64,000 nucleotides of DNA from Oscillospiraceae bacterium (GTDB lineage Bacteria; Bacillota; Clostridia; Oscillospirales; Oscillospiraceae), in contig JAFRLZ010000069.1 in assembly GCA_017430985.1 (NCBI GenBank), forward strand, positions 302-64,301, given 5' to 3'. Each line of letters opens with the position of its first letter. Within the stretch, counting starts at the first letter, position 1. Shown here one piece after another: positions 1 to 35,472 of this stretch. The translations under genes were made by a program, and so were the position numbers. The notes beneath the pieces were generated by a model. It had not been told where the DNA came from. It saw only the letters and a program-made list of their open reading frames with translations, and searched no databases.

Positions 1-1
1 G

Positions 2-415
2 TACGGTTTCAAGTTCCATTATCCGACTCATGAGCACAACTACTTTGCGCTCTATAGCAAGAACATCGACGGAGAATATGAGCTCTGGATCTTCCACTAC
101 GAGGACAAGGACTACATCGAGGTAGCAGGGAACACAGATCAACTGAACATCTGGCTCAGTGAGACCCGCTCGGATCTTACGATGGAGCAGGTCTGCGACT
201 TCGTTGCCGAGCTTTCCAAAATCGGCAATCGGCGTCTCGTCTACAATTGGGCCGAGATGCACAGCGAAGAAGACTGGAAGCAGAAGCTGCCGTTCAGCCT
301 CGTTGTGGACTGGGAGGATATTCAGGAGATGCCGCACAGCGATCCCGCCTTCGACCTGTTCGACGGCACGAATATCGACGAGTGCGTCAGAGCTTATATC
401 GAGTCCAAGAAGTAA
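2..415 (+). CDS. hypothetical protein, 5' end outside window
   Basis: Frame is open from the window edge (YGFKFHYPTHEHNYFALYSK...) to the stop at 413-415. Co-oriented with the following element genes. No family recognised. Confidence 0.45.
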   Translation, partial: YGFKFHYPTHEHNYFALYSKNIDGEYELWIFHYEDKDYIEVAGNTDQLNIWLSETRSDLTMEQVCDFVAELSKIGNRRLVYNWAEMHSEEDWKQKLPFSLVVDWEDIQEMPHSDPAFDLFDGTNIDECVRAYIESKK

Positions 416-474
416 AAAACGAAATTACGTCCGGGAGCTCCTTGTTGAGCTCTCGGACGGGAAAGGAAAACAAC

Positions 475-1527
475 ATGGCAATATGGAAAACCAATGGCGA
501 GCAAGTGAAGCTCATCGGGATTCTGGCAGACGGATTCGTTTACAACGTCGTTGTTGTTGAACGGAACTGCGGAACCCTTCTGGTGCTCGATGTCGAGGAA
601 TTCGATTGCGCCGGGTATGAGCTGCATAGGGAGACGCCTTATGATGCGCTTCCGCCAGGCTACATCCGCCTGAAGGAAATGGTTTCCTTCGGCGTGCGCA
701 ACAGAAGCATGCTTCCGATAACCCCTGAGCAGGCTGCGAACTTCTTCCCTGAACCGATACCCGTGTACCGACTTTCGCGGAACGCTACGGTTCGTTTGGT
801 GGAGAACGCGGAAGAGATCTCCGAGGGCAAGGATGAAATGTACGGGATCACGGTGCAAGACTGGTACACGTACATCGGCCGCTCGGATGATGGTAAGATC
901 GTCCGCTATGACGAAAACGAGCAGCCCATCGAAACGGCGGAGCCCGTTCAGTCCGCTGCTGACGCGGCGCTTCTGGCGGAATACCGCAGGACGGGGCTTT
1001 CACCGGACGATCTCAATGAAGTCGCTGATCTGTTCAGGAGTATTCCTGACGCGGACATCCCGGCCGAGATCAAAGGCTGGGTCGCACGAGGCGCATGGCA
1101 AGCCCGCAGGTGTGCGGAGCTGGAGAAAAAGCTGCAGCTTATGGAGATGGAGCTGACGCAGCTCCATGTTCGGGAGGCCAAGACCCTCAAGGTGCAGCTG
1201 ATCGACCGCCTGAGCGCTGAGAAGGATCGGATCGTCGCCAATATCTTCGATGAAGTAGACGGCGGGGGAGAGGCTGCGGTAAAACACGCTGCTCTCGCAT
1301 CTGCCAATCAGATCGCTCTTCTCAACGCGATCATACACGTCTTCATCCACTGTGATCTCCAGTACATTCAGTGCCGGGAGCTCGCCCGTATTCCGGAGAA
1401 GATCTCTATTATCGAACGGCTGTATCTGACGCTTCTGCCGGAAAACGGAAGTTCGAATAAGCTCTTCTTCGGCGAAAAAGAAATCCAGGATGCGATCTTC
1501 GATATGATCGCAAAACTGGGCGTTTGA
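475..1527 (+). CDS. hypothetical protein (350 aa)
   Basis: ATG at 475 follows a purine-rich RBS-like tract (GGGAAAGGAAAA). The longer 247 start of the ORF track would overlap the previous ORF. Begins MAIWKTNGEQ. No family recognised. Confidence 0.6.
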   Translation: MAIWKTNGEQVKLIGILADGFVYNVVVVERNCGTLLVLDVEEFDCAGYELHRETPYDALPPGYIRLKEMVSFGVRNRSMLPITPEQAANFFPEPIPVYRLSRNATVRLVENAEEISEGKDEMYGITVQDWYTYIGRSDDGKIVRYDENEQPIETAEPVQSAADAALLAEYRRTGLSPDDLNEVADLFRSIPDADIPAEIKGWVARGAWQARRCAELEKKLQLMEMELTQLHVREAKTLKVQLIDRLSAEKDRIVANIFDEVDGGGEAAVKHAALASANQIALLNAIIHVFIHCDLQYIQCRELARIPEKISIIERLYLTLLPENGSSNKLFFGEKEIQDAIFDMIAKLGV

Positions 1528-1554
1528 ATAAAACATGAAAGGAAAGATAAAACA

Positions 1555-2097
1555 ATGAAAAACAAACAGAAAAAAATGATTTCCGGCGTTATCGCTTTCA
1601 CGCTTATGCTCTGCCTTATGATCGTCCCGGCGCTGGCCGCCTGCGGTGCGGTGAGTGAACCGAACCCCGCTCAGGAGCCGGCAATCGCCGACCGCTTCGG
1701 TCTGATCTATCAGGGTGCCTTCGCTACTGCCGGCACTGAGATGGATCGCTCGCTGCCCTTTACAGACGACGTGGATAATGTCTACCTCGATCTGGACGAC
1801 GAGTATCCCTTTATCAGTGGCAGGATGGCCATGGATATGAGCGTGATCGACGACGCCTATGTCGTTGAGCGGATCGAGTGCTATAACTGCGACAGATACC
1901 CTCTCACGCACAACGGCGACAAGGAAATGAAGACGGTGAACGATATCTCGGATATTCTCGGCGAGCCCTCGGCCACGAGAGATGATCCTGACGGCATCAC
2001 GCATCGCTTTATGTGGGTGACCGACAGTTATTCACTTGCGGTGGCCACCGAAAACGATAGTGATGAGATCACCGCATACATGATCAATGCGATCTGA
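1555..2097 (+). CDS. putative lipoprotein (180 aa)
   Basis: N-terminal signal peptide MKNKQKKMISGVIAFTLMLCLMIVPALAAC with lipobox L-A-A-C. Followed by an intrinsic terminator. Confidence 0.65.
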   Translation: MKNKQKKMISGVIAFTLMLCLMIVPALAACGAVSEPNPAQEPAIADRFGLIYQGAFATAGTEMDRSLPFTDDVDNVYLDLDDEYPFISGRMAMDMSVIDDAYVVERIECYNCDRYPLTHNGDKEMKTVNDISDILGEPSATRDDPDGITHRFMWVTDSYSLAVATENDSDEITAYMINAI

Positions 2098-2112
2098 CAG
2101 TACAACATTGTC

Positions 2113-2141
2113 GGCCGGGGAGAAATCCCCGGCCTTTTTTT
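2113..2141 (+). terminator. intrinsic terminator after the lipoprotein gene
   Basis: GGCCGGGG / CCCCGGCC stem with a 6-nt loop, followed by TTTTTTT. Confidence 0.8.
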
Positions 2142-2150
2142 ATGGGGAAA

Positions 2151-2304
2151 TTGACAAAGAAATATATTTGCGGTATTATATACTCGTACTATGGTAGTTA
2201 AGGTTTACTGTGGCTTAGTGCCGCAGTAAACCTTTTCTGCTATAGCTATACTCCGCTTTCACAGACTCACTGTTTCCCCATTTTGGGGCAGTGGGTCTGT
2301 TTTT
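2151..2304 (+). promoter_or_regulatory. promoter plus structured leader/terminator module, copy A
   Basis: TTGACA (2151-2156), 17-nt spacer, TATTAT (2174-2179). Hairpin 1 at 2202-2232 has a 13-bp stem and 5-nt loop, then TTTTCT. Hairpin 2 at 2262-2299 is followed by TTTTT. No ORF. Near-identical copy at 5491-5646. Confidence 0.7.
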
Positions 2305-2341
2305 ATATATACACTTCAAATAAAGGAAGGGAAAGAAACAA

Positions 2342-2770
2342 ATGGACTATGTAAATCCGAACAAGAAGCTGTTTTGCTTCGAGAACTACGTAAAGCTGGC
2401 CGAAGCGCTTGGTGCCGCCGCAAAGACGGGGGACTATGACGCGCAGCAGGACAGCAGAGACTTCGCGCGCGCCTGCGAGTCCTTCCATGAATACGTGCTG
2501 AACGTAGACATGAGCGAGACGCAGATCCGCCTGGCGTACGCGAGATTCGAGGGCGCAGAGCTCCGTGATCGTGTTTCGCACTACGACTCCATGCGTCGTG
2601 CCTATCACGAGCGGGCCATCGCCAACACCTCTTTGGTCAACAACATGGCCAGATTCTACGGCATCGAAAAGATCTTTCTCGGCGACAACGCAGACCGTTA
2701 CGAAGTGGCGGACTTCTGCCTGCAGATCACCAACGAGATCTTTCTGAATCGCCGCGGAGCAAAAAACTAA
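2342..2770 (+). CDS. hypothetical protein (142 aa)
   Basis: ATG preceded by AGGAAGGGAAAG. First ORF after leader copy A. No family recognised. Confidence 0.6.
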   Translation: MDYVNPNKKLFCFENYVKLAEALGAAAKTGDYDAQQDSRDFARACESFHEYVLNVDMSETQIRLAYARFEGAELRDRVSHYDSMRRAYHERAIANTSLVNNMARFYGIEKIFLGDNADRYEVADFCLQITNEIFLNRRGAKN

Positions 2771-2795
2771 AAACTTCATATTGGAGGAAAAGACA

Positions 2796-3131
2796 ATGGA
2801 AACCACCGAAATCAAGGAAGTCGTTTTCTACTACACAGGGAACGACAAGGGCGAGCACCTGATCGCCGGCATCTTTGATGATGTCAAGGAAGCTGTCCGC
2901 ACTGCCCGCGCGGATTTCGAGCGAGTATGCAGGATTATCCGGGACAAGCATCCGAACATCCAGGATGACCCGAACGGTGCCTTCGATCACTTCACCGGCT
3001 TCAACGACTACGATCCGGTAGTCGGCGGCGGCTGGAATGCTTGGGACGGCGAAGAGACGGTCTTTATCGGAGCCCTCATCCCGCGGCTGTGCAAGGTCGG
3101 CTCGGGCATTTTCGAGCCCTGCCATTGCTGA
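2796..3131 (+). CDS. hypothetical protein (111 aa)
   Basis: ATG at 2796 lies about 9 nt after GGAGG. The TTG at 2781 in the ORF track is unlikely. Begins METTEIKEVVFYY. Confidence 0.55.
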   Translation: METTEIKEVVFYYTGNDKGEHLIAGIFDDVKEAVRTARADFERVCRIIRDKHPNIQDDPNGAFDHFTGFNDYDPVVGGGWNAWDGEETVFIGALIPRLCKVGSGIFEPCHC

Positions 3132-3147
3132 GGCAGGAGGTGAGATC

Positions 3148-3786
3148 ATGCACGTACGCAGATATCTTCTGCTTACCGGCGGGTACAGCGCCGCTCGCGG
3201 CCGTGTGTCAGGCCCTGACATCGTGGAGCTTCCGCACGAGACCCTGAAAGCTGCTTCCGACGCGCTTCGAACCGAGTTTGAGGCGGTTGTTAAGCGGGTC
3301 TTTGGGGAAGATCATCAGATCCAGTACGGCTTCTTCGGGGAGGCCAAGTATGGCGTTCGCGGCGAGATCTCCGGATACAACTTCGAGCCGGCACAGTACT
3401 TCTTTGCTGTGATTGCGGAGTCCGGAGAGATCAGCGTCGGCACTCTGAAAGAAATCACTGTCGAACTGAGCGCCTGTGAGCAGGAAACGGCTTACCGAAT
3501 GCAGGAGCGACGCTATCTTCTCATGGATGCGGAATCTCATCTTATGGAACATGTGGGGTATGACCCGGAGCCCGAGACAGACGAAGATGCCGCCGAGAAC
3601 GAGAAGGCGGAACAGAAGTTCCTCGCAGATTACGGCTTCTCGCTTTCTGACGCCATCTGCGAGGGCAGCGAATTCTTTATCCTCGACGAACTCGTCGAGG
3701 AATATCATCACGAATTCGACTGCAACATCGACATCAACGGTCTCTGGGAAGAGGTCGTTCGTGAAGTGCTGCGGAGGTACAAGTGA
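3148..3786 (+). CDS. hypothetical acidic protein (212 aa)
   Basis: ATG at 3148 after GGCAGGAGGTGAG. The C-terminal half is rich in D/E (PEPETDEDAAENEKAEQ...). No family recognised. Confidence 0.6.
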   Translation: MHVRRYLLLTGGYSAARGRVSGPDIVELPHETLKAASDALRTEFEAVVKRVFGEDHQIQYGFFGEAKYGVRGEISGYNFEPAQYFFAVIAESGEISVGTLKEITVELSACEQETAYRMQERRYLLMDAESHLMEHVGYDPEPETDEDAAENEKAEQKFLADYGFSLSDAICEGSEFFILDELVEEYHHEFDCNIDINGLWEEVVREVLRRYK

Positions 3787-3899
3787 TGGTACAGATCGCT
3801 GACGATCCGCGGATCGCATGGGTCATGGCTACCGGATACCCTTATCGCTATCCCGGCGCACATGACGACGAGGATGTCGAGGAAGACGACATCGAGTGA
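3786..3899 (+). CDS. possible small acidic ORF (37 aa)
   Basis: ATG overlaps the preceding stop (GTGATG). Reads MVQIADDPRIAWVMATGYPYRYPGAHDDEDVEEDDIE. No independent support. Confidence 0.25.
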   Translation: MVQIADDPRIAWVMATGYPYRYPGAHDDEDVEEDDIE

Positions 3900-3950
3900 A
3901 CAAACAAGGCCGACAGGGGATAACCTCTGCCGGCCGGAAAGGAACAAAGC

Positions 3951-4949
3951 ATGTCATACACAATCGTATATGACCGGCGCTTTCTCCGCTGCGGAGATCG
4001 GTTTATTCCGATGTGCCTGTACGGAGACAACAATGTTTCCGAGACGAACTATCGGACTGGGCGAGAGGTGCGTGCCCGCGACTGGGGCACCTTCGTATAC
4101 TCGGACGATATGCTCCTCGGCACAGCCGACGAGATCCTGAAAATCGCACGCAAATTTCACCCGGCTTATTCCACAGATACCTGTGGCGGCGTTAAGTTCC
4201 ACGGTAAATTCCTGAATGATGAAGAGATGTACCGCTTCTTCAAAAACGGGATTGCCGGAGCAATAACGCTGGAGGATCTGCTGATCCAGACGACCATCGG
4301 CTCGATTCAGGGGAAGCTGGAGGTCTATGGCCCAGAAAACGGCCGCGACAATGCATTTGACGACGATACGGCCTATCTGCGGACCTCGGCTGAACTGTCC
4401 AACTGGGTCAATGAGGCGAAGACGAGAAAAGCTCAGATCCTCCAGTCCGGCCGCAAATGCCATGTCTACATTTGTCTCTACATGGCTACAACCAGAGACC
4501 CGCTTCAGGTCAGCGTGTTTGCAGATAGGACGGCGCCGGTTGTAGCATACGAAATGGAGTCCGGCAGAAAGAAGCGCAGTTATGTCAAGAGCTTCACGGA
4601 GACAAGCACTTCCTTTACTGTGGACTTCACTGAGGCATTCGTATTCGACAATATCGACGACGCCTATTTGAGCCTCCCGAAATGGTCTGCCAAGAGCCTC
4701 AGGTTCTGCTATGCGGACAAAGAGAAGGAGCGCGCTGAAAGGGAGCCGGGGAAATACGTTGTTTCGGCAACGTACCTTGGTCGGCGGGTGTATATCTATC
4801 AGAAATACCGGAACAAAATTGCTTTCTCTCATGTCAAGGGGAACGATCTGCGCCGCTTTAGCTCTGAGAAAATGGCGCTGAAATGGTTTGAGGAGAAAAT
4901 ACACGCTGCTCAACCCTTGTTCACCGATCCTGTCGTGGAAGAACTTTAA
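3951..4949 (+). CDS. hypothetical protein (332 aa)
   Basis: Long ORF preceded by GGAAAGGAACAAAGC. No family recognised. Confidence 0.6.
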   Translation: MSYTIVYDRRFLRCGDRFIPMCLYGDNNVSETNYRTGREVRARDWGTFVYSDDMLLGTADEILKIARKFHPAYSTDTCGGVKFHGKFLNDEEMYRFFKNGIAGAITLEDLLIQTTIGSIQGKLEVYGPENGRDNAFDDDTAYLRTSAELSNWVNEAKTRKAQILQSGRKCHVYICLYMATTRDPLQVSVFADRTAPVVAYEMESGRKKRSYVKSFTETSTSFTVDFTEAFVFDNIDDAYLSLPKWSAKSLRFCYADKEKERAEREPGKYVVSATYLGRRVYIYQKYRNKIAFSHVKGNDLRRFSSEKMALKWFEEKIHAAQPLFTDPVVEEL

Positions 4950-4965
4950 GAAAGGGGACGCCAAA

Positions 4966-5223
4966 ATGAAACAGTCCAAAGAACTCATGCGTGTCGCCAT
5001 TGCCAATGTCGAGGAAACACGGGCATTCTGGCAAAAATCTGTTGATGACAGCATGGCTGCGCTTCGCTATCAGATCAACCAGCAGCTGACGGCCAAGAAT
5101 ATCTTCGACGGAAGCATGGACGGTCAGATCAACGAGGTCAAACGCAGATACGCCAGGCTCGCCACCTGCGACGAGATCCTGAGCAATATGCGGTCGGTGC
5201 TCGCCAAGATGGAAGCCGAATAA
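4966..5223 (+). CDS. hypothetical protein (85 aa)
   Basis: ATG at 4966 after AAAGGGGA. Predicted helical/coiled-coil composition. Confidence 0.5.
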   Translation: MKQSKELMRVAIANVEETRAFWQKSVDDSMAALRYQINQQLTAKNIFDGSMDGQINEVKRRYARLATCDEILSNMRSVLAKMEAE

Positions 5224-5294
5224 GATTTCGTAGAATGGCCGCATTGACAACATGCGAGAATCGCGTATAAGAACAGGAAGATGAAAACAACCCA

Positions 5295-5402
5295 ATGGGT
5301 AAAAAAGAATTCGAAGAAAGAATCGATCATTTTCGCATTCTTGACGACACCTTTATGAACGAGGTTTTCAAGGGCCAGAAAGCAATTCGACCAAGCGTAT
5401 GA
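5295..5402 (+). CDS. short ORF (35 aa), possibly a truncated gene remnant
   Basis: Reads MGKKEFEERIDHFRILDDTFMNEVFKGQKAIRPSV. A possible own promoter lies upstream (TTGACA 5244-5249, 16-nt spacer, TATAAG 5266-5271). RBS is weak. Confidence 0.25.
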   Translation: MGKKEFEERIDHFRILDDTFMNEVFKGQKAIRPSV

Positions 5403-5454
5403 ACTTTACAAGGCGATGCTTTTGAAACAATAAATTGGGAGAACAAAGCACAAA

Positions 5455-5481
5455 GCAAGGAGGAAACTCCTTGCTTTTTTT
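5455..5481 (+). terminator. intrinsic terminator ending the ORFan operon
   Basis: GCAAGGAG / CTCCTTGC stem with GAAA loop, followed by TTTTTTT. Confidence 0.8.
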
Positions 5482-5490
5482 ACGCCAAGA

Positions 5491-5646
5491 TTGACAAGAT
5501 TACACATTTGCGGTATTATATGATCGTACTATGGTAGTTAAGGTTTACTGTGGCTCAGTGCCGCAGTAAACCTTTTCTGCTGTAGATAAATCCCGCGTTC
5601 ACAGACTCACTGTTTCCCCATATTGGGGCAGGTGAGTCTGTTTTTT
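5491..5646 (+). promoter_or_regulatory. promoter plus structured leader/terminator module, copy B
   Basis: TTGACA (5491-5496), 17-nt spacer, TATTAT (5514-5519). Hairpin 1 at 5542-5572 and hairpin 2 at 5602-5640, followed by TTTTTT. Every element is offset by exactly 3340 nt from copy A. Confidence 0.7.
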
Positions 5647-5691
5647 ATATACGTTTGCTTAAAACGAGAAAAAACATGGAGGTAGAGACAA

Positions 5692-5949
5692 ATGACTTTT
5701 TCGTTATCTCAGATTGCGAGGTGCTACGCTGCCACGGTCGGCAGAGATTCGTACACCTCCGAAAAAGATGTGACCATGCGGTTGAAATCGAGCATTTCTC
5801 GTCAGCAGACCAATGTTCTCGATGACGACCGCGACATCCGAAATCCGAAGGAGATCTATGACCAGACCATCGGAGCGGAGTGCAGCAAGAAGAGCGGCAA
5901 ACTGCCGTTGAAGAGACTTCAGGGAAAGCACTTCGTCGCTCTTGCCTGA
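5692..5949 (+). CDS. hypothetical protein (85 aa)
   Basis: GGAGG lies 9 nt upstream of the ATG. First ORF after leader copy B. Confidence 0.55.
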   Translation: MTFSLSQIARCYAATVGRDSYTSEKDVTMRLKSSISRQQTNVLDDDRDIRNPKEIYDQTIGAECSKKSGKLPLKRLQGKHFVALA

Positions 5950-5976
5950 AGGAAAAAAAGAATAGGAGGGAAAAAC

Positions 5977-7190
5977 ATGTGCAAACCCCAATCTCTTGAC
6001 TCCTACGAAACTCTTTTTGGGAAAGACCGTTTTGCGGATCTTATCAAAGAAGTCGAGGAGATGGAAGCCAACTCCAAGTGGATTCCCGACGTGGAGACCG
6101 CGGGCATGACGGTGAAGACCGTCGATGGCCGTCCGCTCTTCGTGACCGAGGAAGCCAAGGAACCTTCGTGACCGAGGAAGCCAAGGAACTCGGCGCCGAC
6201 GAGGAGCTCACGGAGGAAACCGGCATCACCGGCTCCGGCCTTGCTCTTCAGCTGCCGAATGGACGCACCGAGCTGTTGAGGGACACTGCTATGTCAGGTC
6301 TTCTCAACGCCGGCAAGATCGACGGCAAGTGGCAGAGCTATGTCACCAAGCCGGAATTCTGCCTGATCATGAACACGATCTTTCCCCATATCCGCACGAA
6401 ACGCCTTGTGCTGGAACGTTGGGGGAAGGTGAGCGCCATTCATTCTCAGGCGGATGGCGGTTACGAGATCATCCCGATCTCGGCTGCCCTTGAGATCGCC
6501 GTAGACGCACTCAGAAAGCGCTTCGGAAAGCTGGTGTTCACGAGCGGGTACAACTCCCACTCGCGCACAGAGGCCGTCTGGGAGCTTCCAGACGCCCAGA
6601 GCGCCCTGTGTCAGAAGTATCAGGATGCGCTCGACGGTACGATGTCTCAGGTTCCGGTCAACTTCATGCCGGTCGTGCGTTTCCGCTCCTCGGATACGGC
6701 GAACTCCGCTGTCACTCTGGTGCCGGGTTTCAGAAAGCCCGGCGACAAAGCGATCATCAGCTTTGTGCCCGGAGCAAGGACTGAGCACACAAAGGGCGGC
6801 AAGGAGGAAGACGTTTCCGGTCTTGATCTGTTCAGAGAGGACGCGGGAATGATCTATTCCCAGTTCGAGAAGAGCATGGAGAAAATCGCCGCGCTCAAGG
6901 ACATCGAGATCAAGCACGGCTGCAATGCCGTGATCGGCCTGGCGAAAAAGCTGGTGATCTCGCGCAAGTACGCGGAAGCCGCTCGTTCGACCATGGAGAT
7001 GTTCACCGACGGCGACATCGGCAATCCCGTGACCGGCCATGACCTCTATTTGGCGATGACCGAATGCATTTCTGAGGCAGTGCGTTCCGGCGCCTCCCAG
7101 AAGACGATCATGGACACGGAGGAGAAGGTCTACCGGATGCTCAAATTCGATCTGACCGAGTATGACAAAGGTGGTGTGGTGGCCTGGTGA
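5977..7190 (+). pseudogene. DUF932-like phage/plasmid protein gene split by a 26-bp tandem duplication (frameshift)
   Basis: ORFs 5977-6171 and 6078-7190 both read FVTEEAKE across the duplicated unit. Deleting one unit gives a continuous 395-aa ORF. The DUF932 assignment is tentative and rests on RFRSSDTANSAVTL-type segments. Confidence 0.7.
6138..6189 (+). repeat. perfect 26-bp tandem duplication (2 units)
   Basis: CTTCGTGACCGAGGAAGCCAAGGAAC occurs at 6138-6163 and again at 6164-6189. Confidence 0.95.
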
Positions 7191-7238
7191 TCCAGGCTGC
7201 CACCTTCCGAAAAAAAGTAAATAGGAGATGAAACAAAA

Positions 7239-8672
7239 GTGTTCTTCGAATGTAATCTTCCGAGGTCACTGATCCCGGTCTATCAGCCCTGGCTCTATCA
7301 GGCGCTGGAGAGCACGATCAGGACGGTGTATCAGAGGACGAAAAAACTCAACGCCGCGCTGGATTATCTCAATCGCTGCGGCTGTCCCATGCAGCCGGAA
7401 ACGTTTCAGCTTTGGGCGAGCTCCGTCTTTAAGCTGAATCCCGGCCGCTTCGATGCGCTTTCGCACGCGGAGCTGGCAACGCTCTGCATGTCGCTGTACG
7501 ACGGCGAGGAGCAGCCGAAGCGTCTGGAGTTTCCCAATGCCATTGTGCTGTATGATACCGCCTTTGTCACGACGAAGGATTGGGAGATCCTGCGGCACAT
7601 CGGGCTCGGCGGCTCGGACAGCTCGGTCACGAACGGTGCTTCCGAGTTCCAGACCGAAGAAGGGCTTTTCTATGAAAAGCTCGGCTATACGGATCTGCTG
7701 GCGGCTGCCGGGAAGAGACTCTCGGACGACAAAGGCGGCGCCGTATTCGAACGCGGTCATAACGTGGAAGATAAGGTGATCTCCATTTTCTGCGAAATGA
7801 CCGGAGCTGTTCGAATCCGTGAAACGCGCATGTTCCAGAGCAAGCGTTACCCCGCTTGCACGGCCAACGTGGACGCAATCCTCAGGATGCCTGACGGCGA
7901 AACGGTTCCCTTCGAGGCCAAGTCCACGATAGACCAGTACACCACGAAGCAGAAGTGGTTCGGCGATGCGGTTCCCATGTACTATCTCACGCAGGTGCAT
8001 CAGTATCTCGGCGTGCTCGACGATCCGCGCATCAAGCGTGCGTTTATCGGTTGCCTGCCGGTCAACGATGTCATTCTGGCGGATAAGTACATCGCCAGCG
8101 AGCCGGCCTACTTCAATGGTGAGCGTCAGTATTTCCATCAGGAAATCAAACGGGATCTGGAGATGGAAACCGCGGTCATGACCAATGCCCAGAATTTCTG
8201 GGACAGGTATATCGCCATGAATCTCAAGCCGAATCCCAGCGGGAAAGCGGACATGGATCACTATGTCGCGCTGCATTTCCGCCCTTCGCCTTTGACGGAC
8301 GACGCTGCTGCAGACCTTGAGACGCCCATCAATATCGCCTACGGCGATGTGGAGGACGACTACGCCCAGTTCAAAAAGCTGGATGCCGAGATCTCTTCGC
8401 TGCAGGAACGCATCAAGACGCTGGACGAGGGCCGGAAGGTTCTCAAGGATAAGCTGGCAAATCTTATGGGAGATTCCGTAGCCGCCACCGTGATCGATCA
8501 CGACGGTAACCCGATCTTCTATATGACCAACAAGCCCGGCGCCAAGATCACCTATGATCGGGAGATCCTTGAGAAATATTTCCCGGAGGCGGAAGAGAAA
8601 GCGAGGCGGGTTTCCTCCTATCTCACGCTCCGCGTAACGGAGAAGGCGCCCAAGAAGAAAAAGACCAAGTAA
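7239..8672 (+). CDS. YqaJ-like (lambda-exonuclease fold, PD-(D/E)XK) recombination exonuclease domain protein, 477 aa
   Basis: GLGGSDSSV...FYEKLGY...FERGHNVEDKV...ANVDAIL...FEAKST...VPMYYLTQVHQYLGV matches the YqaJ motif order. GTG start after GGAG. Has an extra N-terminal region of about 110 aa and a C-terminal coiled coil. Confidence 0.7.
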   Translation: MFFECNLPRSLIPVYQPWLYQALESTIRTVYQRTKKLNAALDYLNRCGCPMQPETFQLWASSVFKLNPGRFDALSHAELATLCMSLYDGEEQPKRLEFPNAIVLYDTAFVTTKDWEILRHIGLGGSDSSVTNGASEFQTEEGLFYEKLGYTDLLAAAGKRLSDDKGGAVFERGHNVEDKVISIFCEMTGAVRIRETRMFQSKRYPACTANVDAILRMPDGETVPFEAKSTIDQYTTKQKWFGDAVPMYYLTQVHQYLGVLDDPRIKRAFIGCLPVNDVILADKYIASEPAYFNGERQYFHQEIKRDLEMETAVMTNAQNFWDRYIAMNLKPNPSGKADMDHYVALHFRPSPLTDDAAADLETPINIAYGDVEDDYAQFKKLDAEISSLQERIKTLDEGRKVLKDKLANLMGDSVAATVIDHDGNPIFYMTNKPGAKITYDREILEKYFPEAEEKARRVSSYLTLRVTEKAPKKKKTK

Positions 8673-8747
8673 ATCCCGGAAAGGGGAGAGGGACATGAAA
8701 GAATTTCTGCTCCCCTCGCGGGCCGCTCCTGTAGAGGGGGTGACTCT

Positions 8748-10931
8748 GTGACGGGAGAAGAGAACCAGAAGCAGTTGGAAACTCTGGAAGCAACATTCCA
8801 ATCCAGCATCTTTGAGGCAGCGGACAAGAGCTTCTGCATTTACCGGTATATGCGTTCAGACGGATCGCAGGTGATCGCAGTCGGAACGGATCTGCCGAAT
8901 CGCAGACAGCTCCCCGTACTGCTGCATGGAACGTGGGAGATCTCCAAGAAAACCGGCGGCAAGCAGCTGCGCGTTGCTTACTCGGAAGCGGCGCCTGTGC
9001 GCGACAGGGATCAGGTCATTTCCTACCTGTGCTCTTTGAAGTGCGGGATCGGGAAAATGAAAGCCATGGCCATCTGGAAACGCTACGGTGAAGCCAGCTG
9101 GGACGTTCTGGACAACGATCCGGATAAGATGGTGAAAGACAAGCTTATTTCGCCAAAAATCCTTGAAAAGCTGATGGATGCGCAGAAAAGCGCGATCTTG
9201 TCCCGCAATCTGCTGAAGCTGTTCGCGGAGGCGAACATCCCGGTAGGCGGAGACATGATCCACCGTCTGATCGAAAGACACGGAGAAAAAGCCGATGTGC
9301 TGCTCCGTGATAACCCGTATATCGCCATCTCGCGCGATGAGCTGTCCTTCGAGAAGGCAGATGCGCTCGCTGATGCTCTCGGTTTTGCCAAAAACGATCC
9401 CCGCCGCATGGCCGCTGTGATCGTGAAGGTTCTGGATGACGCGGCTGTGAACGGTCATGTATGCGTTCCAAAGGAAATGCTGCTGGATATGGTCAAAACC
9501 TATACCGGCTGCCCTATGGAGGAATGCGTCAAGGCCATCAATGCCGCATGCCGTGAGAAAAAAGCTGTTTATAGCAGCGGCTTTGTGTATGCCAAAAGGC
9601 GATACGACGAAGAAACTGCCATAGCAGACAACATCCAGAGACTGATGACGGCCTGCTCCGATCCGGTCCGCGGCCTGGATGCGTTCATCTCAGACTACGA
9701 ACGCGAGAACTTCTCGCTTGCGGAATCGCAGCGGGAAGCGATCCTGCGCGTCTTCGAGTCCGGCGTGAGCGTGATCACAGGCGGCCCCGGCACAGGCAAG
9801 AGCACCGTCACGAACGCGATCCTGTATGTCCACAAAAAGGCGTATGGGGAGTCGAGCGAGCCGATCCTGCTCGCGCCGACCGGGAAAGCCGCAAGGCGTC
9901 TTGGAGAAGCGAGCGGCTGCGGCGCGCAGACGATCCACTCCGCCGTGGGCTGGCGCGGCGATGAAGTCGAGGCAGAGCCGTGCTCTCTGCACGGGAACCT
10001 CTTCATCATCGACGAGAGCTCCATGATGGATCAGTTCGTTTGCGATATCTTGCTGGAGGCCATCCCGAGCGGCGCCCGCGTCGTCTTCGTAGGTGACTGC
10101 GACCAGCTTCCGTCTGTCGGATGCGGCAATGTCCTGAGTGATTTCATCTCCTCGGAGGTGATCCCCACGACGAGGCTGCACGTCATCTTCCGTCAGGCCG
10201 AAGACAATCCGATCATCGAGAACGCCCGCCGAATGAACGAAGGCGACTCGAACCTCATATACACCGATACGTTTCGGTTTTATGAGGCGCACAGCTCCGA
10301 CGAGCTGTTCGAGTCCGCCTGTGATTTCTATGCGCGCTGTGTGGAAGCATACGGGATCACGAATGTGATGCTCTTGAACCCACAACGCAACCACAGTGAT
10401 CTGACTGTGGACCGGTTCAACGCCGCGCTTCAGGAACGCATCAACCCACCCTCCGACGACAAGAACGAAATCCGGATCGGTCGTCAGATCTTTCGGGAAG
10501 GGGATCGCGTCATGGAGCTGCGGAACACCGAGCGTTCCAAGAACGGCGATACAGGCGTGATCCACCGGATCGAGAAGCGGGAAAGCAGCACTGATCCTCC
10601 CGAGTTCTACAGCGTGGCCATCATCGAATTCAACGACGACGGCGTTCTGCTGGATTACAATGCGGACGACCTGCATCATGTGACGCTGGCCTATGCCAAT
10701 ACCGTCCACAAGGCGCAGGGCGAAGAGTTTCAGACCGTGATCATGGTCATCACAAAGGCCCATTACGCGATGCTTCGCCGGAATCTCGTTTATACGGCTG
10801 TTACGAGAGCCAAGCAGCATGTCGTACTTATGGGTCAGCTGGATGCGTTGGACACGGCCGTGAAAAACAATCAGGCGGATGTGAGGTATACCTTGCTGGC
10901 CGCCAGATTGAGGCACAAACTGAAGAAATAG
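8748..10931 (+). CDS. RecD-like (RecD2/SF1B) ATP-dependent DNA helicase, 727 aa
   Basis: Walker A GGPGTGKST, Walker B IIDESSM, VGDCDQLPSVGCGNV, TVHKAQGEEF, VYTAVTRAKQHVVLMG. GTG start after AGAGGGGG. Confidence 0.85.
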   Translation: MTGEENQKQLETLEATFQSSIFEAADKSFCIYRYMRSDGSQVIAVGTDLPNRRQLPVLLHGTWEISKKTGGKQLRVAYSEAAPVRDRDQVISYLCSLKCGIGKMKAMAIWKRYGEASWDVLDNDPDKMVKDKLISPKILEKLMDAQKSAILSRNLLKLFAEANIPVGGDMIHRLIERHGEKADVLLRDNPYIAISRDELSFEKADALADALGFAKNDPRRMAAVIVKVLDDAAVNGHVCVPKEMLLDMVKTYTGCPMEECVKAINAACREKKAVYSSGFVYAKRRYDEETAIADNIQRLMTACSDPVRGLDAFISDYERENFSLAESQREAILRVFESGVSVITGGPGTGKSTVTNAILYVHKKAYGESSEPILLAPTGKAARRLGEASGCGAQTIHSAVGWRGDEVEAEPCSLHGNLFIIDESSMMDQFVCDILLEAIPSGARVVFVGDCDQLPSVGCGNVLSDFISSEVIPTTRLHVIFRQAEDNPIIENARRMNEGDSNLIYTDTFRFYEAHSSDELFESACDFYARCVEAYGITNVMLLNPQRNHSDLTVDRFNAALQERINPPSDDKNEIRIGRQIFREGDRVMELRNTERSKNGDTGVIHRIEKRESSTDPPEFYSVAIIEFNDDGVLLDYNADDLHHVTLAYANTVHKAQGEEFQTVIMVITKAHYAMLRRNLVYTAVTRAKQHVVLMGQLDALDTAVKNNQADVRYTLLAARLRHKLKK

Positions 10932-10943
10932 GAGGAGATGAAA

Positions 10944-11162
10944 ATGCCGGAAATCAAACGGCGTTACGTGTACAATGGCGCGGTCTCCTCGTATGACCGC
11001 GTTATCTGTGACAGGTGCGCAGAGGTCGTCACCTGGGCAAGCTCCGCTTCAAAAGCGGAATCCAATGTCAAATTCCAGCTCCGCAGGCGCTGGAACATGG
11101 CGCAATACGTCCCTTTGAAACTTTTGGACAAGATCAGGGAAGCCCCTGCTTCTCCTGCCTAA
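10944..11162 (+). CDS. hypothetical protein (72 aa)
   Basis: GGAGG at 10931-10935 is spaced 8 nt from the ATG at 10944, so this start is preferred over 10938. Confidence 0.45.
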   Translation: MPEIKRRYVYNGAVSSYDRVICDRCAEVVTWASSASKAESNVKFQLRRRWNMAQYVPLKLLDKIREAPASPA

Positions 11163-11165
11163 AAG

Positions 11166-11194
11166 TGGACAAGAAAGCGTCAATGTGGTATAAT
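11166..11194 (+). promoter_or_regulatory. internal sigma-A-type promoter
   Basis: TGGACA, 17-nt spacer, extended -10 TGTGGTATAAT. Confidence 0.55.
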
Positions 11195-11223
11195 AAAACA
11201 AAAAAAGAAGAAGGAGAATCATC

Positions 11224-12267
11224 ATGGGTTACAACAACGGCAATGGCTACAGCTACAACAATGGCAGCGGCGGCTACGCTCCCCAGGGGCAGCCGCAGAA
11301 CGCGGCTCCTCAGGGCGGATACCCGCAGCAGACCCCTGCGCAGAACTATCCTCCTCAGGGACAGGCGCCCCAGTACGGCACCCCTCAGGGCGGATACCCG
11401 CAGCAGGCTCCAGCTCAGAATCCGGGTTACGCGCCCGCTCCCAACGGCAGCTACGGTCAGGCGCCTCAGCAGAGCGGCTACCAGCAGCAGGGGAGCGGCA
11501 GGGAGAAGGTGCAGTATAGCTCCTATATTGTGAACATTCCGGAAAACGCTTCCTGTCTGGAGGACACTCAGGTAACGGTCGCTCTGAACAACATCGACAA
11601 GAGCCTGAACCTGTATATCGAGCAGCTGACGAGCAAGAACAACAACCGCTGCGTCAAGTTCTCGTTCGATCTCACGATGGCGGACAGCGAGTGCAGCCGG
11701 CTCCTCGGCAAAGATGCCGTGGCGCCCGACCACAAGATACGCTTCGAAGCGCTCATGGCCGGCTGGGATGCGGAAAACTTCCTGAAGTATATCCCGCACT
11801 GCAGCAAGACCATCGTTCTGATGCTTCGGAAGCTGAAGCTCGATTCCTTCACTCGCAGGGACGGTTCATCGGTGCCGAAAGTGGATTGCCTGGTCAGCGG
11901 CTACTTCGTCGTGAACATGAGCAGCAAGTACAAGGCCGCTGCGATCAAGGCGGCGAATCTGGAAGAATCCAAGCCCTACCATGTGAACGTCCGCAAGCCC
12001 AAGAACGATGGCGGCGGCGCTCCCGCTCAGGCCCCGTATTCTCAGCAGAGCGCTCCCTATGGCGCTCCGCAGGGCGGATACCCGCAGCAGGCGCCCGCGC
12101 AGAACACCGGCTACACGCCCGCACCCAACGGCGCTTATGGCCAGCCGCCTCAGCAGAGCGGCTACCAGCAGCCGGGCGGCAACGGCTACGGCTACGGTGC
12201 TCCGCCTCAGAACGGTATGCCCGGCGCTACGCAGTACGGCGGAAGCGGCGGGAAACTCCCGTTCTAA
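11224..12267 (+). CDS. SSB-like OB-fold protein with Q/G/P/Y-rich N- and C-terminal low-complexity tails, ending in LPF
   Basis: The core segment IRFEALMAGWDAENFLKYIPHCSKTIVLMLRKLKLDSFTRRDGSSVPKV resembles the SSB pattern F..a.WG..AE....Y..KGS.v.V.G.L....f..rdG. The C-terminus GGSGGKLPF resembles the SSB ...LPF tip. The tails resemble an SSB Gly/Gln/Pro linker. Confidence 0.45.
   Translation: MGYNNGNGYSYNNGSGGYAPQGQPQNAAPQGGYPQQTPAQNYPPQGQAPQYGTPQGGYPQQAPAQNPGYAPAPNGSYGQAPQQSGYQQQGSGREKVQYSSYIVNIPENASCLEDTQVTVALNNIDKSLNLYIEQLTSKNNNRCVKFSFDLTMADSECSRLLGKDAVAPDHKIRFEALMAGWDAENFLKYIPHCSKTIVLMLRKLKLDSFTRRDGSSVPKVDCLVSGYFVVNMSSKYKAAAIKAANLEESKPYHVNVRKPKNDGGGAPAQAPYSQQSAPYGAPQGGYPQQAPAQNTGYTPAPNGAYGQPPQQSGYQQPGGNGYGYGAPPQNGMPGATQYGGSGGKLPF
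11383..11487 (+). repeat. 105-nt intragenic direct repeat, N-terminal copy
   Basis: Encodes PQGGYPQQAPAQNPGYAPAPNGSYGQAPQQSGYQQ. Paired with 12067-12171. Confidence 0.9.
12067..12171 (+). repeat. 105-nt intragenic direct repeat, C-terminal copy
   Basis: Encodes PQGGYPQQAPAQNTGYTPAPNGAYGQPPQQSGYQQ, which matches the N-terminal copy at 31 of 35 residues. Confidence 0.9.
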
Positions 12268-12293
12268 GCGTCAGGTCAACACAATACCGAGAA

Positions 12294-12327
12294 GGCGCAC
12301 AGAGTATATCTCTGTGCGCCTTTTTTT
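12294..12327 (+). terminator. intrinsic terminator after the SSB-like gene
   Basis: GGCGCACAGA / TCTGTGCGCC stem followed by TTTTTTT. Confidence 0.85.
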
Positions 12328-12348
12328 GCTTTTTGAAGCGCCGTTTAG

Positions 12349-12377
12349 TTGACAAGAAAATGCAGATATGGTAGAGT
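12349..12377 (+). promoter_or_regulatory. sigma-A-type promoter of the integration module
   Basis: TTGACA, 17-nt spacer, TG-extended TAGAGT. Confidence 0.6.
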
Positions 12378-12410
12378 GAAAACACCAACAAAAAAAGAAG
12401 GGAACCGGGC

Positions 12411-13244
12411 ATGGAACGCGAAGAAATTGATCTGACCATAAAAAATCTGGACAGGTTTTTTGACCAAGAAAGCGTAAAAATGGCGGACGATCTCGCCGAT
12501 ATCGCCGACAGCATTTTGCCAATCCTCTCCAAAGGCCCGTGGCAGCTTCCGGCCAGCTGTATCATCTCTGATGAAGGCAGAAAACTCGTCGCCAGAGATC
12601 CGGACCTTGGGAAACAAACTCTGGAACAGCTTGTAATCACGGAAAAAGATCTTTTTGATCCAAAGGCGCGAAGTTTCATTGCTACTCATACGCCAAGAGA
12701 GATCATAGACGAAGTTTTCGATTCAAACGGCGGAATAGGCCGTACGCACCTTGCTCTCTGCATCAGAGCAGCAAAGCAGCAGTACATTGCCGATGTCGTT
12801 GCCAGATTTGCCGACGATAAAAAAATCTCGTTCATTGAAGCTGCTTTCTATGTCAAAGCGCTTCACGTATGCAACGATTTTTGGTTCGTGATCCAACAAG
12901 GATATAAACTAAAAAAATACTTTTGGAAACCGGAACCGGCGATCCCGACGGAAGAAATGTCTCCCGCGCCTGTAAAGCCGAAAAAGAAAAAGCCTTCCGG
13001 CGCGAAAGCGACCTTTAAGCTCTCGAAGGATCTGCCGGAGTGCCCGGTCTGCAGCAGCAAGGCCATCATGCTGCGGGGCGGGGAGCGAGGCATGCAGTGG
13101 CAGGCTTGCTGCACAGACCCGGAGCAGAAGTGTGAAAACTATTTATTAAAGGAAACATGGTATCCCTCGGAAAAAGCAGCTGTTTCTGCATGGAAGAAAA
13201 TCGTGAAATCATGCGCAGCGAGAAATGAAACCAGCCGCTCATAA
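12411..13244 (+). CDS. hypothetical protein with C-terminal Lar-like (restriction alleviation family) zinc ribbon, 277 aa
   Basis: The C-terminus LPECPVCSSKAIMLRGGERGMQWQACCTDPEQKCENYLLKETWYPSEKAAVSAWKK fits the Lar-family pattern CPxC...C..C...eeA..aWn.r. The N-terminal 200 aa are unassigned. Confidence 0.5.
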   Translation: MEREEIDLTIKNLDRFFDQESVKMADDLADIADSILPILSKGPWQLPASCIISDEGRKLVARDPDLGKQTLEQLVITEKDLFDPKARSFIATHTPREIIDEVFDSNGGIGRTHLALCIRAAKQQYIADVVARFADDKKISFIEAAFYVKALHVCNDFWFVIQQGYKLKKYFWKPEPAIPTEEMSPAPVKPKKKKPSGAKATFKLSKDLPECPVCSSKAIMLRGGERGMQWQACCTDPEQKCENYLLKETWYPSEKAAVSAWKKIVKSCAARNETSRS

Positions 13245-13288
13245 TACGTCCTTGAGATGGGTAAAATGGCTCAAAAGGAGCATTTGAA

Positions 13289-13501
13289 ATGGATGATAAA
13301 AATGTAATAACCTATACCAAAGGCGAAGGCCAAATTATGGTTAAGAGATCCTTCTGCAATAACGCAAAACCGGTATCCGAAGCGATTAAAGATGTGATAA
13401 TTAAGAAAGCGCATGAAAAAAACATTTTGACGAGTCCGCAAAATCTTGATATGATGTTATCGTATATCGGAGAGCCGACTTGCATCCAAGAAGGAGGGTA
13501 A
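13289..13501 (+). CDS. hypothetical small protein (70 aa) immediately upstream of the recombinase
   Basis: AT-rich ORF. Its stop lies 2 nt before the recombinase ATG, and the recombinase RBS is inside its 3' end. Confidence 0.45.
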   Translation: MDDKNVITYTKGEGQIMVKRSFCNNAKPVSEAIKDVIIKKAHEKNILTSPQNLDMMLSYIGEPTCIQEGG

Positions 13502-13503
13502 AA

Positions 13504-35168: not shown

Positions 35169-35472
35169 TTGACAAGCGCCGAAGCATCGATTATAATGCA
35201 GGCAACGCTGAGAAGAACAGGAGTAACCGCGTTTTCTCTGCACAGAGAGCCCCCGTTTGCTGAAAGGGGGAGAGAGGCGCGCGGCGAATACGGTTCGGAG
35301 CGGCACACCGAAGTCCTTTGGGGATGCGTAGGCTGTGACGGGCGCGCCCGATATCGCGCAGGAGTGCCGCAGGGCACTCGCCGAGGCTCTTTCCGCGAGG
35401 AAAGAGCGCACAGAGGTGGTACCGCGTATACCATACGCCCTCTGTCCGAAAGGACAGAGGGCGTTTTATTTT
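35169..35472 (+). promoter_or_regulatory. promoter plus T-box leader, predicted Tyr specifier (UAC at 35289-35291)
   Basis: TTGACA-17-TATAAT at 35169-35197. Stem I elements AGGAGUA and CAGAGAG. GAA-UAC-G specifier context. T-box sequence GGUGGUACCGCG at 35415-35426. Terminator GCCCTCTGTCC/GGACAGAGGGC plus T-run at 35437-35472. Confidence 0.85.

Follow-up and report, generated by a model that had tools for sequence, protein, structure and literature searches.

We describe a short RNA leader module that opens operons of a mobile element in a 64,000-nucleotide stretch of DNA from an Oscillospiraceae bacterium (GenBank assembly GCA_017430985.1, contig JAFRLZ010000069.1, positions 302 to 64,301, forward strand), hereafter the window. 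Positions 1-15171 of the window are the right end of an integrated mobile element (prophage or integrative and conjugative element [ICE]), and two copies of the module, A and B, lie within it. Each copy joins a promoter to a 7-nt box, a long hairpin (hairpin 1), a linker, and a second hairpin (hairpin 2) of terminator shape. The module represents an undescribed, covariation-supported RNA leader family, which is multi-copy within elements and spread over diverged mobile elements of gut Clostridia. Judging from the sequences, we tentatively favor, just short of calling it probable, a reading in which the module would be a cis-acting leader attenuator relieved by local, hairpin-directed antitermination by a trans factor, with a short RNA as by-product. 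Positions are those of the window unless a contig or locus of another sequence (handles beginning with L) is named.

Architecture of the module in the window

The two copies, with the signals that flank them and the first gene of the copy A operon, are laid out as follows.

2113..2141, + strand: intrinsic terminator of the upstream gene (1555-2097), shielding copy A from incoming transcription (9-bp stem with 8 GC, 2113-2134, then TTTTTTT)
2151..2179, + strand: copy A promoter (−35 TTGACA, 2151-2156; 17-nt spacer; −10 TATTAT, 2174-2179; 11/12)
2186..2199, + strand: copy A 5′ leader, holding the box ATGGTAG (2191-2197)
2200..2234, + strand: copy A hairpin 1 core (15-bp stem, 2200-2214/2220-2234; loop TTAGT, 2215-2219)
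2235..2260, + strand: copy A lower-stem 3′ side (CTGCTATAG at 2237-2245) and predicted single-stranded linker (2246-2260) with a motif of the CUCCGC/UCCC type
2261..2304, + strand: copy A hairpin 2, an intrinsic terminator (hairpin 2261-2300, U-run, then AUAUA)
2322..2344, + strand: ribosome-binding site (RBS) AAGGAAGGG and ATG (2342) of the first gene of the copy A operon
2342-2770, + strand: DUF3232 protein, first gene of the copy A operon
5452..5480, + strand: terminator closing the copy A operon, directly before copy B (stem and TTTTTTT)
5491..5519, + strand: copy B promoter (TTGACA-17-TATTAT; 11/12)
5526..5600, + strand: copy B leader (box ATGGTAG, 5531-5537; lower stem, 5529-5537/5577-5585; linker, 5586-5600, with UCCCGC)
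5540-5574, + strand: copy B hairpin 1 core (loop TCAGT)
5601..5646, + strand: copy B hairpin 2 terminator and U-run (from fold and sequence; not listed by the terminator scan)

The copy A and copy B promoters are the top promoter-like sites within the first 16 kb of the window, and that of copy A is the near-consensus σA promoter that an earlier reading, made from the letters of this DNA (hereafter the sequence-only reading), had described. The first base of the box ATGGTAG lies 11 nt past the −10 hexamer, and in the window type the box forms the 5′ side of a lower stem of hairpin 1. In copy A this lower stem comprises 9 bp (2189-2197/2237-2245), three G·U pairs included, and two U·U mismatches separate it from the upper stem, in which a U·G wobble is pair 4 counted from the loop. 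Hairpin 1 had previously been given a 13-bp stem at 2202-2232; the hairpin is real, but it is larger than that, with a 15-bp upper and a 9-bp lower stem.

Copy A hairpin 2 has a conserved base, (A)CAGAC/GUCUG(U), and a variable interior. It presents a GC-containing hairpin with a U-run on the transcribed strand, the hallmark of an intrinsic terminator, and the terminator shape seen in it before agrees with our terminator scan, which lists it with 16 pairs. The window's own hairpin 1 is followed by a tail of only UUUUCU and is not listed by the scan. Because the sequence that trails hairpin 1 (UUUUCUGCUAUAG) pairs with the box, we assign the window-type terminator to hairpin 2. As for the hairpin at 5452-5477, which closes the copy A operon, the scan listed it on the − strand only, and the + strand call is our manual reading of the sequence.

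Copies A and B folded at −65.3 and −63.2 kcal/mol, respectively, compared to about −28 ± 3.5 kcal/mol for dinucleotide shuffles (z scores of −10.5 and −10.3), and 0/200 shuffles per copy were as stable. The number of chance occurrences of the hairpin 1 pattern expected in the window is 0.00. The module had been said to recur exactly 3340 nt downstream; the spacing was right, but the copies are not identical, diverging within the promoter spacer, at one base of a loop, and again in the linker and the hairpin 2 3′ arm. Likewise, the roughly 115 transcribed nucleotides had been thought to contain no open reading frame (ORF). A 12-codon ATG ORF is in fact present at 2191-2229 (MVVKVYCGLVPQ, then stop), which begins in the box, spans hairpin 1, and has no Shine-Dalgarno sequence. 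It is not conserved in relatives, being found only where the box begins with ATGG, and a leader peptide was rejected on the ground that members with the box ATAGAAG lack the ORF.

Conservation of hairpin 1 at the RNA level

Base pairing was counted in two alignments, of 10 and 16 distinct sequences. Hairpin 1 cells were paired in 98.6% and 97.4% of cases, respectively, compared to 34-51% in slid controls, and ten pairs in the smaller alignment and eleven in the larger had changed on both sides. The U·G at pair 4 from the loop was invariant (10/10 and 16/16 sequences). Among 14 distinct hairpin 1 versions, all 26 wobbles can form on the + strand, and 13 of the 14 are less stable as the reverse strand. 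Because all wobbles suit the + strand only, hairpin 1 would be an RNA-level signal, and the data argue that it acts as RNA, or at least as a + strand structure, and not as a DNA operator. Conservation of the stems in related elements, which the sequence-only reading had set as a test, was thus observed together with covariation.

Copies within an element are constant in the box and the hairpin 1 lower stem and vary in the upper stem, loop, promoter spacer, and hairpin 2 interior; different elements have the box in common, and their hairpin 1 stems covary. Constraint of this kind suggests that the 5′ portion of the RNA is recognized in a sequence-specific manner. Hairpin 2 interiors, for their part, always combine a pyrimidine-rich 5′ arm with a purine-rich 3′ arm.

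Signs of exchange were seen among copies. Copy B is a mosaic, with its left half from copy C (one of the further copies described below) and its hairpin 2 interior from copy A. Moreover, the related sequences L004 and L005 are identical over 1238 bp save for a block of ~33 nt in the hairpin 2 interior and linker end; this block, in their copy A (alignment columns 262-295), was apparently brought in from a further module copy by gene conversion. The gene content between modules differs among relatives and the modules persist, and the cassette appears to be a recombination site between gene cassettes.

The module family in related elements

Relatives were sought with the 395-aa protein encoded downstream of copy B as a search handle, which retrieved elements whose neighboring proteins are merely 35 to 45% identical. 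Gaps of 180-260 nt ahead of their genes for the 395-aa homologue and for DUF3232 proteins hold the same module plan. The promoter architecture is common to all copies and relatives (TTGACA-17-TAAAAT in the relatives), the −10-to-box spacing is 11 nt in most copies and 10-14 nt in a few, and the gap from box to hairpin 1 is 2-3 nt in all copies. The 7-nt box reads ATGGTAG in the window, ATGGAAG in L024, and ATAGAAG or GTAGTAG in relatives. Their hairpin 1 differs in sequence, has 12-15 bp and a loop of ~5 nt (4-6), and is directly followed by U5-7; in 13 conventionally paired of 14 hairpins, the stem measures 12-15 bp, and it measures 10 bp in L036c. The 3′ half in relatives consists of a linker with AAAUCCC, a hairpin 2 with the base CAGAC/GUCUG, a U-run, and AUAUA. 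The linker motif AAAUCCC/ACUCCGC is kept across clades, and the hairpin 2 stem has 12-17 bp. Both hairpins have stems of the length (~13-15 bp or more) that characterizes antitermination-resistant terminators of the TerR type.

A second metagenome scan, made with the box pattern, added L141, L144, L115, L135, and L106. In L026, L115/L135, and one L141 copy, hairpin 1 stands alone and the RBS follows directly. Because some members have hairpin 1 only, we define the core of the family as the box, hairpin 1, and the U-run. In the relative L020, hairpin 1 (15 pairs and TTTT) was flagged as an intrinsic terminator. The region 14650-14800 of L020 has the same −10, the 11-nt spacing, and an ATAGAAG box, after which a different, pseudoknot-like fold replaces hairpins 1 and 2; because the box stands there without these hairpins, it may itself be a promoter-linked element.

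Rfam searches of the window and seven related loci, at gathering and permissive thresholds, yielded no relevant match (best scores of 8-20 bits against thresholds of 33-211; E ≥ 0.17). The claim that the module contains no known riboswitch or T-box core was thereby upheld. With its conserved stems and its absence from Rfam, this RNA leader family is undescribed. The sole window match was an unrelated T-box leader (RF00230) at 35201-35445 on the + strand, in the host part of the window, which scored 93.5 bits, just over the gathering score, and has an ORF (35869-37092) downstream. Searches for the exact hairpin 1 pattern returned one chance palindrome in GTDB genomes (in a Bacteroidota metagenome-assembled genome), nothing or AT-rich chance terminators only in IMG/VR, and nothing in the first Joint Genome Institute (JGI) metagenome scan. 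The box pattern gave 54 matches in IMG/VR, one of which was scored by the covariance model (24 bits; E 0.05), and that match falls within coding sequence. No real match came from BLASTN searches of GenBank phages and PLSDB plasmids.

Copy number and operon organization

The sequence-only reading knew two copies of the module. A search with a covariance model (R1), built from ten module copies, identified at least four in the element, including two outside the window. Contig L032 differs from the window by 2 mismatches in 12,097 nt, and contig L157 was tied to L032 via shared gene order and identical cmsearch scores, not base by base. Together, these contigs extend the element 17.7 kb leftward, where genes for SprT-like, DUF4314, SSB, and HD-exoribonuclease proteins are found. 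The R1 matches begin at L157 2904, 12016, and 19871, the last of which is copy A, with copy B 3340 nt further downstream. The extra copies, at L157 2875-3037 and 11987-12143, correspond to window positions −14817 and −5705 and thus lie ~14.8 and 5.7 kb beyond the left edge of the window; they were seen on contigs L032 and L157. The four copies open consecutive transcription units of ~9.1, 7.9, 3.3, and 5.7 kb. Among relatives, R1 detected three copies in L002/L003, two in L020/L021, and two in L029/L030.

All copies found by R1 are on the gene strand, and all copies found lie 25-70 nt ahead of a co-oriented gene. In the window, the upstream gene's own terminator precedes each module and the RBS of the first gene lies 38-46 nt past it, the first gene of the copy B operon beginning at 5692. 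Between the upstream gene's terminator and the ATG, the module promoter is the only promoter-like site of the window modules. Because the upstream gene is self-terminated and no other promoter-like site precedes the ATG, the operon would be made only by read-through. Copy C has no preceding terminator of the kind found at the window modules; a gene ends 22 nt before its −35. Two other good σA-type promoters, at 11166-11194 and 12349-12377, have plain leaders of ~25 nt without hairpins. Because of these plain leaders, the element has two promoter classes, and the module marks a separate regulatory class.

A proposed leader attenuator that would require a trans factor

In the mechanism that we favor, the near-consensus σA promoter would fire constitutively, and polymerase would copy the 5′ box and then the ~15-bp hairpin. 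It would next stop at hairpin 2 in the window type, giving an RNA of ~115 nt, and already at hairpin 1, with its own U-run, in many relatives, giving an RNA of ~50 nt. The downstream operon would stay silent after termination and would be turned on only once an element- or host-encoded trans factor let polymerase through; on the nascent RNA, this factor would read the conserved box and the lower portion of hairpin 1. Such control would unite at least four operons (~30 kb of the element) in a single regulon, and the terminated RNA would be a by-product, perhaps with a role of its own. When four modules were folded up to the hairpin 2 loop, the hairpin 2 5′ arm was unpaired; because this arm has no competing partner, a read-through switch would need a trans factor. 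From these features, we infer efficient termination in vivo, regulated read-through, and a factor that binds the box and hairpin 1. A bolder version, which we consider rather unlikely, is that the box, together with hairpin 1 and the U·G that never varies in it, serves as the docking site of an element-encoded protein or RNA regulator that overrides long-stem leader terminators promoter by promoter. If this were true, a regulon of at least four insulated operons, spanning ~30 kb, would be kept silent via termination and not by a promoter-bound repressor, and a new antitermination system would operate in gut Clostridia elements.

Several observations weigh against the leader attenuator. The compensatory changes come mostly from few clades and represent a modest number of independent events, and gene conversion, rather than selection by a factor, could have kept copies alike in their box and hairpin 1. 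No antiterminator was recognized by Pfam or PHROG match in ~45 kb of the element, where most ORFs match nothing, and no RNA-binding protein was identified. Each window operon closes with its own terminator just before the next module. In addition, 15-bp stems are reported to be resistant to processive antitermination (PMC10325885), and a nozzle-type factor might fail here. By-eye inspection of the early transcribed region, made without a scan, revealed no conserved −10-like (TAnnnT) pause element: the window type has TACTAT/TACTGT, and the L020, L029, L026, and L024 types showed no TAnnnT hexamer. The sequence-only reading had offered a conditional-termination leader, with the logic of phage N or Q, or a stand-alone small RNA (sRNA). 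Both are partly supported and still lead among the explanations. Its N/Q-type logic fared less well: because each operon ends in a terminator before the next module, processive antitermination of this type is disfavored, and the Q pause element was not seen.

Alternative explanations

The module could be a multi-copy ("sibling") trans-acting sRNA with its seed in the 5′ box or the UCCC linker, in which case leaky read-through into the operon would be secondary. The layout is classic for an sRNA (strong promoter, structured body, and Rho-independent terminator), at least four copies are present per element, linear conservation is highest in the 5′ box and in the linker AAAUCCC/CUCCGC, the latter predicted to be single-stranded, and leader-terminated short RNAs such as StxS can regulate (PMC7547250). 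We nevertheless judge this explanation unlikely. The window-type 5′ box is base-paired in the lower stem, the box varies by clade (AUAGAAG versus AUGGUAG) and so fits a shared target poorly, the hairpin-1-only variants have no UCCC linker, and every copy lies 25-70 nt before a co-oriented gene without a promoter of its own. No target was found, and pairing between the UCCC linker and the RBS was rejected as a candidate, since its duplex energies were no better than those of shuffled linkers (z scores of −2.0 to +1.8). The exchange between copies lends support to a factor-independent attenuator or insulator that doubles as a recombination linker, in the manner of PeSL elements (PMC2839356, PMC4122927). 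A strong promoter and leaky terminators would then set a fixed, modest expression and insulate the gene cassettes from one another, and the repeated 150-bp units would drive cassette shuffling by homologous recombination. Such a linker would account for repeated units of promoter and stem-loop that open ORFan blocks, each closed by a terminator, for the mosaic copy B and the swap between L004 and L005, and for the change of genes between modules that stay. What makes it improbable to us is that the PeSL stem-loop precedes or overlaps the promoter and blocks incoming transcription, whereas both hairpins here lie in the promoter's own transcript; that an ordinary terminator already stands ahead of both window modules, although not of copy C; and that an invariant U·G, a 12-15-bp stem, and a conserved box would be superfluous for a mere linker or terminator.

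Hairpin 1 might also serve RNA processing or stability, as a site for a double-strand-specific RNase of the RNase III type or as protection at the 5′ end, where the purine-rich box would be a stabilizer. Repeated RNase III sites occur in the early RNAs of T7 or SP82. The duplex is long (15 bp, or 26 bp with the lower stem in the window type), near-constant in length across clades (12-15 bp) with an invariant wobble, and repeated at operon heads. This function would, however, leave the U-runs after both hairpins and the passage of polymerase unexplained, and most relatives have a duplex of 15 bp, which is short for RNase III; we regard it as quite improbable. We give very little credence to a double-stranded DNA operator, in which hairpin 1 and the box would form a palindrome, present at all early promoters, for a master repressor of the element, like SPBRE and MrpR. 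Repetition at several promoters of one element just past the start site, as for SPBRE in SPβ, and near-identity among the copies of one element with divergence between elements would suit an operator. Yet 26/26 non-Watson-Crick pairs in the 14 hairpins are of the G·U type on the + strand and become A·C mismatches on the other strand, the opposite strand is the less stable in 13/14, the U-runs and terminator shape are unexplained, and a 35-bp perfect palindrome, unrelated in sequence to SPBRE, far exceeds what an operator needs. An RNA-only switch, that is, a riboswitch or a pLS20 zipper-type attenuator in which an extension of the central stem competes with the terminator, is hardly credible. 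The layout is that of the pLS20 cATT, with a long central stem-loop, flank-extended in the window type, between an upstream segment and the terminator (PMC13401043). The stem extension, though, leaves a gap of 15 nt to hairpin 2 and has by then taken in the RNA 5′ end, and folding gave the hairpin 2 5′ arm nothing to compete for it, which largely refutes a switch made of RNA only. Nor did any riboswitch or leader of Rfam match, and a conserved pocket-like multi-helix junction is absent.

Other ideas were rejected as well. A CRISPR-repeat mimic (an RNA anti-CRISPR) fits poorly with hairpin 1 being a full-length palindrome, which CRISPR repeats are not known to be, and no CRISPR array was found in the window. 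A single-stranded DNA promoter of a conjugative leading region needs a template-strand hairpin, and the template strand folds worse. The likeness of the box to the SP6/T7 promoter core (TATAGAAG) is unsupported, in that no gene for a single-subunit polymerase turned up; BLASTP of the large ORFs that were tried did not detect a YonO-like RNA polymerase.

The element and its genes

The element part of the window (1-15171) contains mainly + strand ORFans, and nearly all genes neighboring the modules are without a family match. Its recognizable genes, besides the one for the DUF3232 protein, are the following.

7239-8672: YqaJ/RecE-type exonuclease
8748-10931: RecD2/Dda-type helicase
12411-13244: Lar-like protein
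13480-15171: large serine recombinase

A protein search for the DUF3232 protein returned only 4 homologues, and no informative solved-structure match was obtained. The gene for the 395-aa protein after copy B (5977-7190) carries a perfect 26-bp tandem duplication (6138-6189) and is frameshifted; with one 26-bp repeat taken out, the gene again encodes a full-length protein, which shares 79% identity with its L002 homologue. L032 has the frameshifted form too, and the 340-aa truncated product occurs on 14 contigs, so the duplication is not an assembly artifact. The gene for a YhaM-like exoribonuclease with HD and OB-fold domains (L032 755-1684 versus L157 10001-10929) is intact in one contig (309 aa) and split in other contigs (269 and 49 aa). 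Just upstream of copy C (L157 11400-11965), two small zinc-ribbon proteins of 121 and 61 aa are encoded, which are conserved in L002. Sub-threshold matches of the 61-aa protein include an Ogr/Delta-like zinc finger (E 0.004, below the cutoff), and it is a possible candidate, as a mere lead, for the transcription factor of the module; the pair gives the sole lead to a factor.

Several relatives that share the recombination genes have a phage-like look, with tRNA arrays, HU, and dUTPase (and YopX on L002). Clusters of tRNA genes were found at L024 15921-16740, L036 19221-19918, and L020 16430-17176, and one tRNA at L029 16233-16303; an HU gene adjoins the cluster in L020 and L024. This suggests that the tRNA-bearing elements with the trio of a 391-aa protein, YqaJ, and RecD2 may be large phages. 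Other carriers of the trio resemble plasmids or ICEs, with Rep3/ParA in L043 and YodL/PemK in L040.

Significance

Should the leader attenuator prove right, one short RNA cassette would control most accessory and recombination genes of an element family common in gut Oscillospiraceae and related Clostridia. Gene regulation in these elements, most of whose genes are ORFans, is almost unexplored. At 150 bp, the cassette is a compact and testable system in which the box, U-runs, stem length, and U·G wobble are clear targets for mutation, and either a novel antitermination factor or a novel, abundant sRNA of the element might come to light through it. For annotation, it offers a handy mark of where operons begin in such elements.

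Comparison with known systems

At the lambdoid PR′-tR′, a constitutive promoter is terminated just downstream, giving an abundant short RNA (6S RNA/StxS), which has a function of its own, until antitermination by Q (PMC7547250). The module shares with PR′-tR′, at the sequence level, an always-on promoter, a close terminator, a short RNA, and a silent operon. It differs in its copy number (at least four per element versus one), in its very long hairpin stems, and in its Gram-positive Clostridia host; moreover, neither a conserved −10-like pause element nor a Q-like protein was found for it. As in the λ N/nut system (boxA and boxB, at PL and PR), a linear box and then a nascent-RNA hairpin follow several early promoters of one element, and the linear box is common to elements while the hairpin sequence is element specific. 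No sequence similarity exists, however: the hairpin here has 15 bp and a variable loop, compared to 5 bp and a specific loop in boxB, and the box AUAGAAG appears unlike boxA, to which NusB/S10 binds. Hairpin 1 further carries a U-run in most relatives, the operons are terminator-closed, and no N-like arginine-rich protein is recognizable.

The cATT/conAn system of the pLS20 family (PMC13401043, PMC8191782) is likewise a leader of a Firmicutes mobile element, with a long central stem-loop and a terminator before the first gene. The complementarity between upstream segment and terminator is not present in the module, whose leader is 115 nt long versus 456 nt and which is multi-copy and not followed by a conAn1-like gene. 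PeSL elements of T4-type phages (PMC2839356, PMC4122927) are repeated units of ~100-150 bp with a σ70-type promoter and a stem-loop, placed before ORFan blocks and bearing signs of recombination; their stem-loop lies upstream of or inside the promoter, whereas the hairpins here lie downstream of the −10 and show conserved RNA features. SPBRE, recognized by MrpR in SPβ (PMC10516654), is a short sequence that recurs, close to where transcription begins, at some ten promoters of one large temperate element. As read from NC_001884, it is a 15-bp double-stranded DNA motif (AAATACAAAAAATATGTAT-like) without hairpin or terminator, in contrast to the + strand RNA structure of the module. The pLS20 terminator TerR (PMC10325885) has a comparable stem of ~15 bp, with average Bacillus terminators at 9 ± 2 bp; TerR closes an operon, whereas the long-stem hairpins here open one. 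Altogether, the module lacks the defining features of the Q, zipper, PeSL, and SPBRE families, and its resemblance to nut is one of layout only. It is of one kind with the leader terminators and antitermination sites of mobile elements.

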